From Nitrospirota bacterium (GTDB lineage: Bacteria > Nitrospirota > Thermodesulfovibrionia > Thermodesulfovibrionales > UBA6898), in contig QKDO01000058.1 of NCBI GenBank assembly GCA_003252075.1, forward strand, positions 6,017 to 70,016: 64,000 nt of DNA, read 5' to 3'. The translations under genes and the position numbers were made by a program. This document shows, one piece after another, positions 38,064-43,116 of the stretch; positions within the stretch are counted from its first letter, which is position 1; each line of letters opens with the position of its first letter. Under the pieces are notes generated by a model that saw only the letters and a list, made by a program, of their open reading frames with translations, was not told the origin of the DNA and searched no databases.

Positions 38064-38969
38064 ATGGAAGAAAACAGGATAGCAATTGACAGGGATCTCT
38101 GCAACGGCTGTGGATTATGCATCACTGTCTGCCCCACAGGAACCGTCTCGCTCCTGGACGGAAAGGCAGCTGTCTCAAGAGAAGAGTCGATCCTGTGCGG
38201 ACATTGCGCAGCAGTATGTCCCCAGGAGGCAATCCGCGTCACGGCAATTGATGAAGAGATGTCACGGTACAGGACGTTCACTGCTGAGAAATCGTGGCTT
38301 GCTCCCGGAAAATTCAGCACTGCCGCTTTGGTCCAGCTTATGGCCTCGCGCCGGTCCTGCCGCTGCTTCACCAGCCGGCCCGTAGACCGGGCAGTGCTCG
38401 AGGACCTCATAAAGATCGGCATCACTGCCCCGTCAGGAACCAACAGTCAGGCCTGGACCTTCACTGTTCTGCCGACGAGGAAGGCGGTGTTATCCTTGGC
38501 AGGATGCATTGTGGCCTATTTCGGGAGATTGAACACCAGGGCAGAGAAGACCTTGCTTCGTCTGTTCCTCATGGTGACCGGCAAAGGAGAACTCGATGCC
38601 TATTACCACGGCTACTACCGAAAGGTGAAGGAGGCGCTTGACGTATGGCATGGGTCAGGCAAAGACCGGCTCTTTCACGGAAGCACGGCTGCCATTCTTG
38701 TCGGGTCCAGGCCGGGCGCAAGCTGTCCGGCTGAGGACGCCCTGCTGGCGACAGAAAATATCCTGCTTGCAGCGCACAGCATGGGACTCGGCTCCTGTCT
38801 CATCGGCTATGCCGTTGCGGCGATGAAGAACGATCCCTCCATCGGGCAGGCTGTTGGCATTCCGCCGGAAGAGGCAATTCATGCCGTTATCGCCCTCGGC
38901 TATCCCGGCGAGGTCTATCAGCGCATAGCAGGGCGAAAAAACGCAACACCGCGCTATTTCGAGGGATAG
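38064..38969 (+). CDS. 2x[4Fe-4S] ferredoxin domain fused to a nitroreductase-family domain
   Basis: CNGCGLCITVCP and CGHCAAVCP cluster motifs. The nitroreductase fold follows (RRSCRCFTSRPV, APSGTNSQAWTFTV, LGSCLIGY, ALGYPGE). Confidence 0.8.
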   Translation: MEENRIAIDRDLCNGCGLCITVCPTGTVSLLDGKAAVSREESILCGHCAAVCPQEAIRVTAIDEEMSRYRTFTAEKSWLAPGKFSTAALVQLMASRRSCRCFTSRPVDRAVLEDLIKIGITAPSGTNSQAWTFTVLPTRKAVLSLAGCIVAYFGRLNTRAEKTLLRLFLMVTGKGELDAYYHGYYRKVKEALDVWHGSGKDRLFHGSTAAILVGSRPGASCPAEDALLATENILLAAHSMGLGSCLIGYAVAAMKNDPSIGQAVGIPPEEAIHAVIALGYPGEVYQRIAGRKNATPRYFEG

Positions 38970-39189
38970 AAGCTCGGAACAGACTCCCGTCGCCGGCGCA
39001 CTTGGCATCAGGCGAAGCCGGGCTGTTGCCGGCTGCAGAGAGATCGGTCAGCCTGGCTTTCGTTTACTGCTTTCCGAGACCCTGCATTACGAGAGGAAGC
39101 AAGGCGCCCGGAATAGGTGCAGGGCTATTGCATAGCGCCGGACAACAGATAAAGGCAACGACCGCCACCCTGCTGTCCGGTTGTTTCAG

Positions 39190-39687
39190 CTACTCTACCT
39201 TTACAGCTATCTTCTTCGTCTCCTCCACCGCCTTTGCGGTCTTGGGAAGTGTAATGCTCAGCACGCCTTTCTTGAACTTTGCATCGATCTTTTCGGTATC
39301 GACCTCAACCGGAATCGGGACTGACCTGCTGAACGAGCCGTAGGACCGCTCCAGTTTGTAGTAGTCCTTGCCCTTGTCCTCCTTCTCCTCCCGCTTATCT
39401 CCCTTGATCGTGAGCATGCCCCCCTGGAGAGAGACGTCGATATCCTTTTCATCCATGCCCGGAAGTTCGGCCGAGATCCTGATCTCCTTGTCGTTCTCGG
39501 TAACATCGACCTTCGGGCTAAAGGCGCCGAGCCTTCCTTCAAAGGGTTGCAGGTCGAAGCTGCGGAAGAAGTTGTCGAACAGGTCGTCGAATTCCCTCCG
39601 GAAGGCCGCGAAGGGATGCTCCTCCTCCCGCCTCACCGGGACGTCCTTCCTGCCGAATGTCACCAGATCCTTCAGTGCCATGGTCAC
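39190..39687 (-). CDS. Hsp20/alpha-crystallin small heat-shock protein (third in operon)
   Basis: FSPKVDVTENDKEIRISAELPGMDEKDIDVSLQGGMLTIKG...ERSYGSFSRSVPIPVEVD...AKFKKGVLSITLPK. Confidence 0.9.
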   Translation of the reverse strand: MTMALKDLVTFGRKDVPVRREEEHPFAAFRREFDDLFDNFFRSFDLQPFEGRLGAFSPKVDVTENDKEIRISAELPGMDEKDIDVSLQGGMLTIKGDKREEKEDKGKDYYKLERSYGSFSRSVPIPVEVDTEKIDAKFKKGVLSITLPKTAKAVEETKKIAVKVE

Positions 39688-39711
39688 TCTCCTTTCCGGC
39701 CGGTTCGCTCC

Positions 39712-40119
39712 TTATGCCCCGGCCTTTACTTCAATTTTCTGGGTCTTGGCCTTCTCGGCCTTCGGGAGCACGAGTTTCAGAACGCCGTTCTTCACTGTCG
39801 CCTGAATCCGCTCCCGGTCGATCTCATTCGACAGTGTGAACCGGCGGTGATAATCGCCGATGCCGTATTCGTACACAGCGAGCTGCATGTCCTGCGGGAT
39901 ATCCGGATCCACCTTTGCGTAGATCTCGAGGATGTTCTTCTCAAGCGTGATGTCGACCGAGGACTCGTCCACGCCCGGGACATCCGCAATGATCGTGGTC
40001 TGATCCCTACCCTCAATGATGTCCACGGCCGGTTGATACACGCGCCGTTCACGCGTGCGCTCATCCCGTTCCGTTGTTACCGCTTCCTTTTTCCGCGTAT
40101 CCAGATTGTCGTTTGCCAT
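39712..40119 (-). CDS. Hsp20/alpha-crystallin small heat-shock protein (second in operon)
   Basis: YQPAVDIIEGRDQTTIIADVPGVDESSVDITLEKNILEI...GDYHRRFTLSNEID...ATVKNGVLKLVLPK. Confidence 0.9.
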   Translation of the reverse strand: MANDNLDTRKKEAVTTERDERTRERRVYQPAVDIIEGRDQTTIIADVPGVDESSVDITLEKNILEIYAKVDPDIPQDMQLAVYEYGIGDYHRRFTLSNEIDRERIQATVKNGVLKLVLPKAEKAKTQKIEVKAGA

Positions 40120-40136
40120 ATCTTCACCTCCTGTCG

Positions 40137-40973: not shown

Positions 40974-41216
40974 CCTCGGGGGCAAAGACATTGCCTTTCA
41001 GCCAGTCTGCTGCGCCTGATACTATACCCTGCCGTGATAATCTCATACATGAATATTTCCGTTTATGACAGGTAAAATCTGCTTTCCCTTCCTTCTGGAC
41101 TCAAGTATGGAGCGGTTCTGCTATAGGAACAAGGTTCCTCTTGGAAATAAAAGCAGGCGCCATTACAGGCGGCAACAGCATGTTTGGCAACTGTTACTAC
41201 AGGATATTGAAAAGTC

Positions 41217-42599
41217 CTAAAACGTAATCGCGAGTTGGGCACCCAATACAACAGCATTCCCCACGGCGCCGCTTCCGCCCGGCTTTATCACGTACTGAAG
41301 GTCCGGAGTGACTGAGAGCCATGGGGTTATTGTGATACGATAGTTGGACTCAATCACTGTCTCTCCCGACCTTTGCGGTATGTATCCGCTGAAACTCCCG
41401 TAAATGGTACCTATCGAGGCAATGTCCTTCCAGCGACTGGGGATCAGTCCCTGGTAACTTAACCCGCCGCCAAAAAAATACGGCATAGTGCTGACACCCG
41501 GTTTAGGCGACAGAGCGACTTCTCCCCAGACAGTCAGGCCTTTCCGGCTTGCAGGGCCTCCGTCCCGGTAAACCATCTGCTGAAACATGGCATACAGATT
41601 GTAGTTGCTGCCTGCGGTGCCTGCGGGTAAGCGCAGACTGGTAAAATCATTGCTGTCGTAAAAGCCGCCGATCGTGTATTCACCCGGCAGCCCGGAGTCC
41701 CCTTGGGCCTGATTGTGCAGATAACTGACCTGCGCTATTGTCAGCAGCCCGGAATTACCCTGCTGGAGCGCAAAATTGGCTCCGCTGTCCTTACCGCTGG
41801 CGGCATTGGGGTTTGTATTAAAAATGCCTGTTACAACCTGAATGGCCGGAACCAAGTCATACATTACCTGGACACCCCACTCCACACCTGGAGGGCTGGG
41901 CGTGAACGTTGCGTCATTGATACCGAGAGAACCGGGGACAGCGTTAATACCCCCATTGATAAAGTTGTTTAAGACAGGCAGCGTCGCAAAGGTGTTGGCA
42001 GGGGCCAAGCGGCCAAGAGCAATGGTAAGCGCACCGTCAAAGAACTGCTGCTGCAGATACATCTGCTGCAGATTGACCTTTTCTCTTCCGGTGAACGCGC
42101 TCTGCACCTCGAACACATCACCGATATACTTGTCCGAAAGATCCTGACCCGATGAGTAACTGCCTCCTATGTTGAAAGAGAGGCCGGGTACACCCAGGAG
42201 CTTATGGATATCCCAGGCCATCAGAGTTTCCACTGTACCGGCATAGGTGATTCCCTGATTTTGGCCGCCGCTCGGATTACCCATGAACTGAGCCGTGTAC
42301 GAGAGTATCCAGGTAATCCCGAGGTTCATCAGTTTGGTCCGATACCCTGCCCAATCTCGGGTCAATGTTTCTTCTATCGCAACAAAGGGCTTTCCCACAC
42401 AACTGAAATGAAGGCCGTGAGGATCAGCGGGGCTAGGACAGCGGAGGGTCCGGTCAGTTACGGCCCCAGGATCTTCAGCAGACCCTGAAGCATCCTGCGA
42501 TTGCGTGGCGTCAACCTGGGCAGATGCCGGCACAGTGCTGCCAAGGGGAAGATCAGACGCCAGGAAAAACAGAGCAGTTACAAGGCAAAGGCAGCCCAT
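41217..42599 (-). CDS. OprB-family (carbohydrate-selective) outer-membrane porin
   Basis: Signal peptide MGCLCLVTALFFLASD. LTRDWAGYRTKLMNLGITW...FMGNPSGGQNQGITYAG...DIHKLLGVPGLSF is typical of OprB. C-terminal aromatic residue (LAITF). A GGAAGG lies 6 nt before the ATG at 42599. Confidence 0.7.
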   Translation of the reverse strand: MGCLCLVTALFFLASDLPLGSTVPASAQVDATQSQDASGSAEDPGAVTDRTLRCPSPADPHGLHFSCVGKPFVAIEETLTRDWAGYRTKLMNLGITWILSYTAQFMGNPSGGQNQGITYAGTVETLMAWDIHKLLGVPGLSFNIGGSYSSGQDLSDKYIGDVFEVQSAFTGREKVNLQQMYLQQQFFDGALTIALGRLAPANTFATLPVLNNFINGGINAVPGSLGINDATFTPSPPGVEWGVQVMYDLVPAIQVVTGIFNTNPNAASGKDSGANFALQQGNSGLLTIAQVSYLHNQAQGDSGLPGEYTIGGFYDSNDFTSLRLPAGTAGSNYNLYAMFQQMVYRDGGPASRKGLTVWGEVALSPKPGVSTMPYFFGGGLSYQGLIPSRWKDIASIGTIYGSFSGYIPQRSGETVIESNYRITITPWLSVTPDLQYVIKPGGSGAVGNAVVLGAQLAITF

Positions 42600-42856
42600 C
42601 CTCATCCTTCCCCCGAAACCTGCCCGAAGCAAAGACTTCCTGTTGCACCACTTTCTTACATTGCAGACTTCTCTACGCATCTGAATCTATCCATGATGTC
42701 GCGGCAGTTATCAGGCACTGGCTGCAAGGGATCTGTTCATGCATTATTTATCGCCAGACTCTTTTTGTCGTTAAAATATCACACCTGGCATCGGAAAAAA
42801 CAGCGGCTGACGTGAAATACTCGCTCGGGCGCAGATGAAAGGATCGAGGGTAATAA

Positions 42857-43081
42857 TTCGGAAATATCTCCGTCGCCAGGATATTGACTTTGAGAGCCTG
42901 CCATCGGGTCCTGGAGATGCAGGATGGCCCCGGGAGGCGGTCCGCGTTAAGGCAACTGACAAACACCGGCATTCCGTCAGAAGAGACAATGCACGCCGTT
43001 ACCGCCTTCGGGTATCCCGGTGAGGTCTATCAGCGGACAGCCGGGAGCAGAAGCGCAACACCACGCTCTTTGGCAGGATAG
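42857..43081 (+). pseudogene. 5'-truncated remnant of a nitroreductase paralogue (copy 3 of the 3' end)
   Basis: Frame translation: ...ENISVARILTLRACHRV...GIPSEETMHAVTAFGYPGEVYQRTAGSRSATPRSLAG*. The last 114 nt align without gaps to 38856-38969 (about 21 mismatches by hand count). Two stop codons (TAATAA) lie immediately upstream. No ferredoxin or N-terminal nitroreductase part is present. Confidence 0.6.
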
Positions 43082-43116
43082 CAACCGGGGACCGAGACTT
43101 CGCCATTGAGTATCCA

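Follow-up and report, generated by a model that had tools for sequence, protein, structure and literature searches.

Repeated 3' ends of a nitroreductase gene in a Thermodesulfovibrionales genome suggest serial duplicative insertion at one site

In a 64,000-nucleotide (nt) stretch of DNA (here, the window) whose host belongs to the Thermodesulfovibrionales (Nitrospirota), an intact gene with Fer4 ferredoxin and nitroreductase domains (NR) is followed by two further copies of its own 3' end, with a heat-shock operon and a porin gene lying between successive copies. On balance, we read these three copies as the scars of duplicative insertions that followed one another at a single hotspot, the end of NR together with the conserved non-coding tail behind it. 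Each event would have placed a small, self-contained block behind NR: the three-gene hsp20 operon with its CIRCE operator (controlling inverted repeat of chaperone expression), the OprB gene, and probably the open reading frame (ORF) at 43304. Each would also have duplicated a stretch of target of variable length, about 37 nt for a short direct repeat described below, about 76 nt at a related locus (L138), about 170 nt for copies 1 and 2, and possibly about 800 nt for copy 3. The upstream copy would remain joined to the gene and keep it functional, and the downstream copy, attached to the original tail, would be displaced and decay neutrally. L numbers denote fetched related contigs that we compared with the window; the closest record is the metagenome-assembled genome UBA6898 (L001), whose NR is 98% identical in amino acids.

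The functional gene of the window, NR-a, occupies 38067-38969 on the forward strand and has a Pfam Nitroreductase match (2.7e-24) in addition to its Fer4 domains. Orthologues at more than 160 loci, with 72-98% amino acid identity, place the conserved start, ATGGAAGAAAACAGG, at 38067, where mechanical ORF calling had put it at 38004. The upstream or promoter region on the same strand (GTTCAC...TTGCGGTGTTATCAT..., 37960-38066) aligns with the sequence upstream of most orthologues. NR-a alone carries the approximately 200-nt upstream region that orthologues conserve; nothing similar precedes copy 3.

The first-pass annotation of this DNA had proposed three copies of the NR 3' end, and a repeat search, local alignment and profile search all recovered them. 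The repeat search returned one family with three gap-free copies of 134 nt, at 38836-38969 (copy 1), 40840-40973 (copy 2, 77% identical) and 42948-43081 (copy 3, 70%), spaced by 2004 and 2108 nt; this family and one 37-nt pair are the only clearly non-chance repeats in the 64 kb. Local alignment of 40825-40973 with 38820-38969 gave 79.3% identity over 150 nt with one 1-nt gap (E=4e-35), and blastn aligned 42968-43095 with 38856-38983 without gaps at 78.9% over 128 nt (E=2e-30). E-values of 1e-30 to 1e-35 rule out chance similarity, and so significant a result is unlike the resemblance expected of unrelated nitroreductase genes, the outcome that had been named as fatal to the proposal. From GGCATTCCG to the stop codon, each of the three copies is exactly 114 nt long, as had been counted by eye, and the estimate that four-fifths of positions are identical was accurate for each pair: 78.1% between copies 1 and 2, 81.6% between copies 1 and 3 and 77.2% between copies 2 and 3, with 69% of positions the same in all three. 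Amplification of a tandem unit of about 2 kb, which the regular spacing hints at, was discarded, as the interiors of the two intervals lack similarity to one another.

We resolved the anatomy of the copies using nhmmer with a DNA profile of 26 aligned NR genes (25 from related loci and the window's own). Copy 1 (38820-38992, forward strand) comprises the repeated part of the functional gene's end and roughly the first 20 nt of the conserved tail, beyond which tail homology stops. Copy 2 (40822-41030, forward) corresponds to NR positions ~751-903 plus the full tail of about 55 nt (profile positions 751-939, E=6e-30), and its profile match runs about 36 nt past the stop. It carries a 1-nt deletion that shifts the frame, as well as the in-frame TAG that had been noted by eye, located at 40851-40853. 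Differences between copies 1 and 2 are spread evenly over the codon positions (10/12/10), which together with the stop and the frameshift indicates neutral decay of copy 2. Over its first 18 nt (40825-40842), copy 2 matches 38820-38837 exactly, despite an overall identity of about 78%; this run could be a crossover or a conversion patch.

Copy 3 is composite. Its 3' piece (42967-43106, forward) covers NR positions ~789-903 plus a degenerate tail (profile positions 789-927, E=1.3e-24), and it is abutted by a 56-nt fragment of the NR ferredoxin domain (42908-42963, forward; NR positions 134-189; nhmmer E=3e-5), so that about 600 nt of the gene are absent between them. By blastn, the fragment is 80.5% identical over 41 nt (E=3e-7; PREAVRVKATDK versus PQEAIRVTAIDE). 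The same composite is present in L001. Copy 3 had been described as a 5'-truncated remnant spanning 42857-43081; the 3' end of that description stands, but the ferredoxin piece had been missed, and homology to NR is not detectable in 42857-42907 or in the TAATAA that had been noted ahead of the remnant. We also discarded a candidate start codon for copy 3 at 42835, where there was no significant homology and no NR promoter upstream.

A similarity extending about 20 nt past each stop codon had been noticed; it is real, and proved to be the beginning of a longer conserved element. Some 55-60 nt of non-coding sequence (CAACCGGGACAAAGACTTCGCATTTCAGGCAGTCTGCTGCACCTGAAAGTC) directly follow NR in about 45 related loci; beyond it, those loci carry sequences unrelated to one another. 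In the window this tail lies at 38970-38992 in copy 1, 40974-41030 in copy 2 and 43082-43106 in copy 3; it is complete in copy 2 (to ~41030), partial in copy 3 and cut to about 20 nt in copy 1, ending at about +20 where the hsp20 block begins. Its conservation exceeds that of synonymous sites, it holds a pair of inverted 7-mers (TTTCAGG-N12-CCTGAAA), and it was not found away from NR in the 1.8 Mb of fetched loci. The distribution of the tail gives the copies a polarity: the downstream copy 2 retains the ancestral tail, while in the functional copy 1 the tail gives out after about +20, which is what an insertion model predicts.

The copies themselves stem from this lineage's own gene and not from a distant donor. 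They share nine states that are in the minority (frequency 0.05-0.43) among 82 orthologue ends, and with 83 candidates copy 1 was the sole nearest neighbor of copy 2 in 47% of bootstraps and of copy 3 in 19%; these shared states and the position of copy 1 as best neighbor are the basis for that assignment. Three of four changes private to copy 1 are synonymous. Foreign surrogate ends could be rejected, since the same orthologues are equally near to the 5' part and to the 3' part of NR-a, and the copies share the lineage-specific states. A grouping of copies 2 and 3 as sister pseudogenes (six shared sites against about three expected by chance) was not relied upon, and an earlier view that copy 3 is older than copy 2 was dropped after the in-register comparison of the 114-nt module.

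The arrangement is not an assembly artefact, as it recurs in four independent assemblies (L001, L081, L082 and L164). L001 and L164 share 95% identity with the window, and their collinearity with it begins at 28077 for L001 and at 30856 for L164 and extends to 43828. They lack a 361-nt segment (40770-41130) that contains copy 2 and is present in the window and L081; no flanking direct repeat or microhomology was found at the segment's junctions. Because copies 1 and 2 differ by about 22%, far more than the approximately 5% that separates the window from L001, copy 2 predates the split of the haplotypes, and the simplest inference is that a deletion of 361 nt later removed it from L001 and L164.

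An independent event at a related locus is the central comparative finding. In L138, NR is followed by antisense hicA and hicB genes (HicA_toxin, 3e-15), by a further copy of NR's final ~70 nt, and then by the ancestral tail; the two NR-end copies are 95.6% identical. The site is uninterrupted in L136 and L133 (91-92% identical to L138 in nucleotides), and their tail is the sequence that follows the downstream copy in L138. With these empty sites for comparison, L138 gained about 510 nt of cargo and a gene-end duplication of about 76 nt. Both of its NR-end copies share three substitutions that are absent from L136 and L133, which means that the duplicate derives from the L138 lineage itself.

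Comparing all loci pairwise, we found that near-identical strains elsewhere differ by whole blocks of 0.6-2.2 kb directly after the tail. Identity between L130 and L132 is 100% across NR and 49 nt of tail. Unrelated blocks of 1.8 and 2.2 kb, respectively, come next (a PEP-CTERM protein and a DsbC_N-domain protein in L130, two ORFs with no Pfam match in L132), and the two contigs become identical again at a second tail-like ATTTCAGG sequence. Further block polymorphisms, of 0.6-1.3 kb at +7 to +62, distinguish L107 from L103 and L005, L115 and L140 from L105, and L017 from L163. A 1.2-kb response-regulator block in L107 is missing from L103 and L005, and a 0.6-kb TrmO-like gene inserted at +7 in L017 is missing from L163; in L115, L140 and L105, different sequences fill the interval from the tail to a common downstream sequence that is preceded by tail-like remnants. 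Two of the insertion points that could be placed are at +7; the remainder are at about +20 and from about +35 to about +70. Filled and empty versions of the site were observed only as static alleles. Cargo at the site occurs on either strand, so the antisense orientation of the cassettes between the copies, which had been singled out in the window and is correct there, is not a rule.

The other repeat of the window may mark one more such event. Its two 37-nt copies (43115-43151, in the distal tail of copy 3, and 43806-43842, both on the forward strand) are 86% identical, share the exact 18-mer GCAACAAGAAAGACCTGA, and bracket a small Tyr/Pro-rich, secreted-type ORF (43304-43789, forward) with no Pfam match. 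This ORF encodes a signal peptide and a Tyr-Pro run (YYPYYPYYP) that arises from 9-nt tandem repeats at 43520-43581; L028 has weak relatives upstream of NR. Collinearity with L001 and L164 stops inside the second repeat copy, after 43828 (...GACCTGAC), where a strain-variable defence region starts (43829-46411). Genes for NERD, HNH and McrBC-component (McrC-like) proteins occupy 43862-46411 of the window, and AbiEi_2, DUF429, Nmad2, MazG-like and SMC_N/AAA genes stand in the same place in L164 (1-9350).

As to mechanism, we favor target-duplicating recombination or repair. In one version, DNA from a close relative would be anchored on NR homology and its other end joined illegitimately, as in a Campbell-like crossover or homology-facilitated illegitimate recombination (HFIR), where one end is joined by homology and the other illegitimately (PMC3240628). 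One-sided homology, here supplied by NR, can leave a homologous segment on both sides of the insert in HFIR or a Campbell single crossover. In a second version, replicative template switching would be responsible. Template switching (fork stalling and template switching, FoSTeS, or microhomology-mediated break-induced replication, MMBIR) produces insertions flanked by duplications, with short templated pieces at the junctions. Such pieces resemble the 56-nt ferredoxin-domain fragment, and template switching would therefore also explain that fragment's place at the copy 3 junction. Neither version predicts a hotspot at the tail of one gene unless the sequence there is prone to breaks or stalling.

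Several points weigh against serial duplicative insertion as an account of the window. The ferredoxin fragment needs either a longer duplication followed by a 600-nt deletion or a templated insertion at the junction. No empty-site relative was found for the window's own events, as the nearest other NR genes are at most 84% identical in amino acids and lack flanking synteny; that these events were insertions is something we infer, as is the direction of the 361-nt difference, taken from relative divergence. Neither an enzyme nor junction microhomology was identified. The tail-like second copies beside other blocks are short and degenerate, and a strict motif search downstream of NR found no enrichment of the tail motif and no arrays. 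Finally, the three copies are about equidistant (78-82%) and do not give the order of events.

Duplicated gene ends flanking inserts are normally read as the footprint of integrase-driven elements, and the first-pass annotation had accordingly proposed site-specific elements, each bringing a surrogate 3' end and pushing the older one downstream. We consider this explanation improbable, though the likeliest of the alternatives. It would have integrative elements of the kind found at icd or at tRNA genes enter the NR 3' end serially, with their integrases since lost, or with a recombinase acting in trans on an attachment site in the tail (TTTCAGG-N12-CCTGAAA). Direct repeats of the gene's 3' end do delimit the cargo, and the displaced copy keeps the original downstream sequence, both in the window (copies 1 to 3) and in L138. 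The 18-nt run shared by copies 1 and 2 stands at the edge of a 77%-identical alignment, with an estimated chance probability of about 0.01. Breaks also fall at the edges of a single tail element of about 28 nt in a subset of events, from +22 to +49 in L130/L132 and from +25 to +52 in the 28-nt repeat of L159; the 37-nt repeat brackets the ORF at 43304; and the strain-variable island begins exactly after ...GACCTGAC. Toxin-antitoxin (TA) modules such as the hicA/hicB pair of L138 are typical last survivors of decayed islands, which we counted in favor of such elements.

The recombinase itself, however, is what the scanned sequences lack. As the first-pass annotation had remarked of integrases, none is visible: Pfam searches found no integrase or recombinase domain in the block genes or in neighboring ORFs up to 63 kb, a scan that did not take in every small ORF, and found none in eight ORFs from six variable blocks elsewhere or among the called genes of L164 upstream of NR. 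Nor is there a constant crossover position. Left edges of the repeats fall at NR position ~751 in copy 2, at 789 and 134 in copy 3 and at 835 in L138, and right edges at about +20, +55 and +7; since the edges differ between events, they define no common core. The repeat shared by copies 1 and 2 excludes the inverted 7-mers of the tail entirely, the tail motif occurs neither in arrays nor away from NR, and its arms show neither covariation nor a conserved hairpin. The duplicated ends carry substitutions of the host lineage itself, the ferredoxin-domain fragment is not predicted by a surrogate-end model, and no NR fragment or phage or plasmid attachment site matching the NR end was found in viral contigs. 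Serial insertion at the gene's 3' end is thus the supported part of the original proposal, through the displaced remnants, their polarity and L138, and the site-specific, surrogate-end mechanism is not supported. A dedicated integrase acting on a fixed core is not the most likely mechanism; a trans-acting recombinase that uses the tail element is possible, as several events share the interval from about +22 to about +50.

Comparison with known systems sharpens this distinction. In Escherichia coli K-12, e14 (like phage 21) inserts into icd and supplies the last part of the functional gene, with the C-terminal fragment left at the far end as the pseudogene icdC (PMC13626634, citing Hill et al. 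1989). The footprint in the window is the same, with a functional gene at the near end of the insert and a gene-end remnant left distally. The element e14 differs in being a prophage of 15 kb that has a fixed attachment site and a site-specific, SOS-induced system for excision, whereas the blocks here are 0.5-2 kb of ordinary genes in which no recombinase was found, flanked by repeats of about 37 nt to several hundred and with ends that bear host-lineage substitutions. At the ssrA gene of Dehalococcoides, serial direct repeats of the target's 3' end delimit blocks, some of which are without integration genes, but the repeat is a constant 20 bp, the insertion position is a single precise one, and 16 islands have a conserved serine-integrase module (PMC3146451). 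Islands at the 3' ends of ssrA, tRNA and fda genes, and the accretion of cis-mobilizable elements (CIMEs) in streptococci, share with the window serial 3'-end repeats behind an intact gene. Tycheposons, tandem islands or elements at gene 3' ends, can be likened to it in the same way. In contrast to the ssrA islands, boundaries here vary between events, and the scanned ORFs of the window and the variable blocks hold no integration module. The footprint is thus that of known gene-end insertion scars, and it differs from them by its variable repeats and by the absence of any recombinase from the ORFs searched.

We assign a somewhat lower probability to the decay of paralogues, which the first-pass annotation had raised as a collapsed tandem array. 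Two or three complete NR genes, arising by tandem duplication or repeated acquisition, would have been separated by the hsp20 and OprB genes, and two of them whittled down by deletions. Copy 3, with an N-terminal ferredoxin piece as well as a 3' end, must once have extended beyond a 3' stub; the three copies lie at roughly equal distances from one another; deletions do happen here, as the 361-nt difference from L001 attests; and NR modules in several genomes are flanked by similar motifs of about 20-30 nt, which is compatible with former tandem modules. Yet none of the more than 160 related loci has two full-length NR genes, in tandem or otherwise, and neither remnant retains the conserved upstream region of about 200 nt or gene positions 1-133; beyond the 56-nt ferredoxin piece, the remnants have no 5' or promoter homology, and so we do not class them as members of a decayed array. 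Three full paralogues in relatives, the pattern that had been set as the sign of simple paralogue decay, were accordingly not seen. The 80 other NR loci from genomes and 80 from metagenomes, all at most 84% identical in amino acids to the NR of the window, each have a single NR with no hsp20 or OprB nearby and share no flanks with the window; neither scan yielded a relative between 84% and 98%. For L138, paralogue decay would call for three steps, a duplication, an insertion and a deletion of exactly 835 nt, where a single duplicative insertion is enough and empty sites have been observed. It also leaves unexplained the unrelated blocks between the copies and the other block polymorphisms at the same spot.

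Doubtful, and less probable again, is that the tail is a dedicated capture site, at which a remote recombinase, or a site-specific nick or stall at TTTCAGG-N12-CCTGAAA, time and again inserts and swaps small promoter-bearing blocks across the Thermodesulfovibrionales. On this account the NR module would be one such unit, a suggestion that rests on tail-like motifs found upstream of NR as well. If true, it would amount to a cassette platform resembling that of integrons, but with neither attC sites nor an adjacent integrase. The likeness to integron cassette arrays is that small, mostly one- or two-gene units, including a TA pair, gather at one site and differ between near-identical strains. 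The blocks differ from cassettes in having their own promoters, operator and terminators and lying in either orientation, with no intI, attI or attC, and in that the repeated unit is a piece of the neighboring gene plus its tail. We therefore rejected an integron proper: no integrase was found in the scanned ORFs, and the tail motif, which occurs only next to NR, has no conserved hairpin or covariation.

Other properties of the tail were recorded in the course of this comparison. No consensus fold was obtained, and variants in the arms of the inverted 7-mers are mostly uncompensated, a single compensatory variant being seen in L009. A known RNA family or structured 3' element was set aside, given the lack of an Rfam match and of a consensus fold. 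A motif resembling the distal tail (CACCTGAAAGTCAACACC) occurs about 195 nt upstream of NR in L087, L091, L108, L010, L016, L094, L130 and L161. In L159, a near-perfect 28-nt direct repeat (26/28; 9803-9830 and 10925-10952) brackets the whole NR module, and the 1.2-kb module may, judging from this pattern, itself be a repeat-bounded unit. A CCTG motif was noticed at several junctions, and we make no claim for it.

Least likely of all, with very little probability in our estimation, is that the 361-nt segment holding copy 2 was inserted recently, in the window's lineage, into one older hsp20-OprB block bounded by copies 1 and 3, with L001 and L164 ancestral: these two contigs do lack the segment, its junctions lack microhomology that would point to deletion, and hsp20 and OprB genes are also near each other in L166, but copy 2 differs by about 22% from each of the other copies, compared with about 5% between haplotypes, and so is no recent copy of either, it would need an unseen third source, and in L166 the order of hsp20 and OprB differs and a group II intron lies between them.

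Two classes of mobile element were also dismissed. A diversity-generating retroelement does not fit, as no reverse transcriptase was found in the scanned ORFs and mismatches are not confined to adenines (on A/G/C/T, 9/9/8/5 in copy 2 and 14/8/13/5 in copy 3). For a transposon or insertion sequence, the blocks would be expected to show a transposase or significant terminal inverted repeats; neither was found in the blocks or at their ends, and the duplications vary from 37 nt to several hundred.

The cargo of the window is as the first-pass annotation described it, a triple Hsp20 operon with a CIRCE element and an OprB-like porin. The three Hsp20 genes of the first block lie on the reverse strand at 39190-39687, 39712-40119 and 40137-40574 (Pfam HSP20, 8.8e-24, 3e-16 and 4.4e-22), with a terminator-like hairpin 3' of hsp20A (39152-39171, reverse strand; a match to the consensus only). 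The CIRCE operator (TTGGCACTC-N9-GAGTGCTAA, 40608-40634) lies upstream of hsp20C and has one mismatch; it is the single match in the window, and 100 shuffles gave none. The same three-gene hsp20 operon is also present in L035 in an unrelated context, 3 kb from an NR homologue with unrelated genes between, and this case was set aside as uninformative.

The second block carries a solitary OprB-family porin gene on the reverse strand (41217-42680; Pfam OprB, E=1.7e-58), followed 3' by another terminator-like hairpin (41158-41180, reverse strand; again a consensus match only). Three more distant OprB homologues (64-69% amino acid identity, four contigs) sit in sulP-oprB clusters (L168-L171), three of which include an adjoining HMA_2 gene; closer homologues (75-76%) are found among transposases or beside a group II intron. 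Given the clusters elsewhere, the solitary OprB gene here looks relocated to its present site. A Dissulfurispiraceae metagenome-assembled genome (L166, 137-9383) has the order dnaJ-merR-clpB-hsp20, a group II intron and then an OprB homologue.

Two further observations deserve brief mention. A small Cys-rich ORF lies upstream of NR at 37164-37460, and its homologues are near NR in L005 (13147-13383) and L088 (1812-2036), on the opposite side of the gene from that in the window; this proximity suggests a loose functional link with NR. In L156, the DUF1016 gene directly behind NR is frameshifted, and a 45-nt duplicate (89% identical) of the 3' end of that gene lies ahead of it (10907-10951 versus 11626-11670), a further instance of a gene-end fragment duplicated beside its own gene.

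The same footprint that elsewhere marks integrase-borne elements is thus present here with no recombinase found, and it surrounds very small, ordinary cargo: a heat-shock operon and a porin in the window, and a TA pair in L138. The hotspot behavior of the NR tail, with insertions gathered behind a single gene throughout a bacterial order, stands out as the most interesting by-product of the analysis. If serial duplicative insertion is the correct reading, it would document a route by which single operons and TA modules enter chromosomes, where the movement of TA modules has been poorly understood, and the conserved non-coding element behind NR would be a fragile or recognized site. For annotators, 3'-end fragments of this kind would then be scars and not genes.

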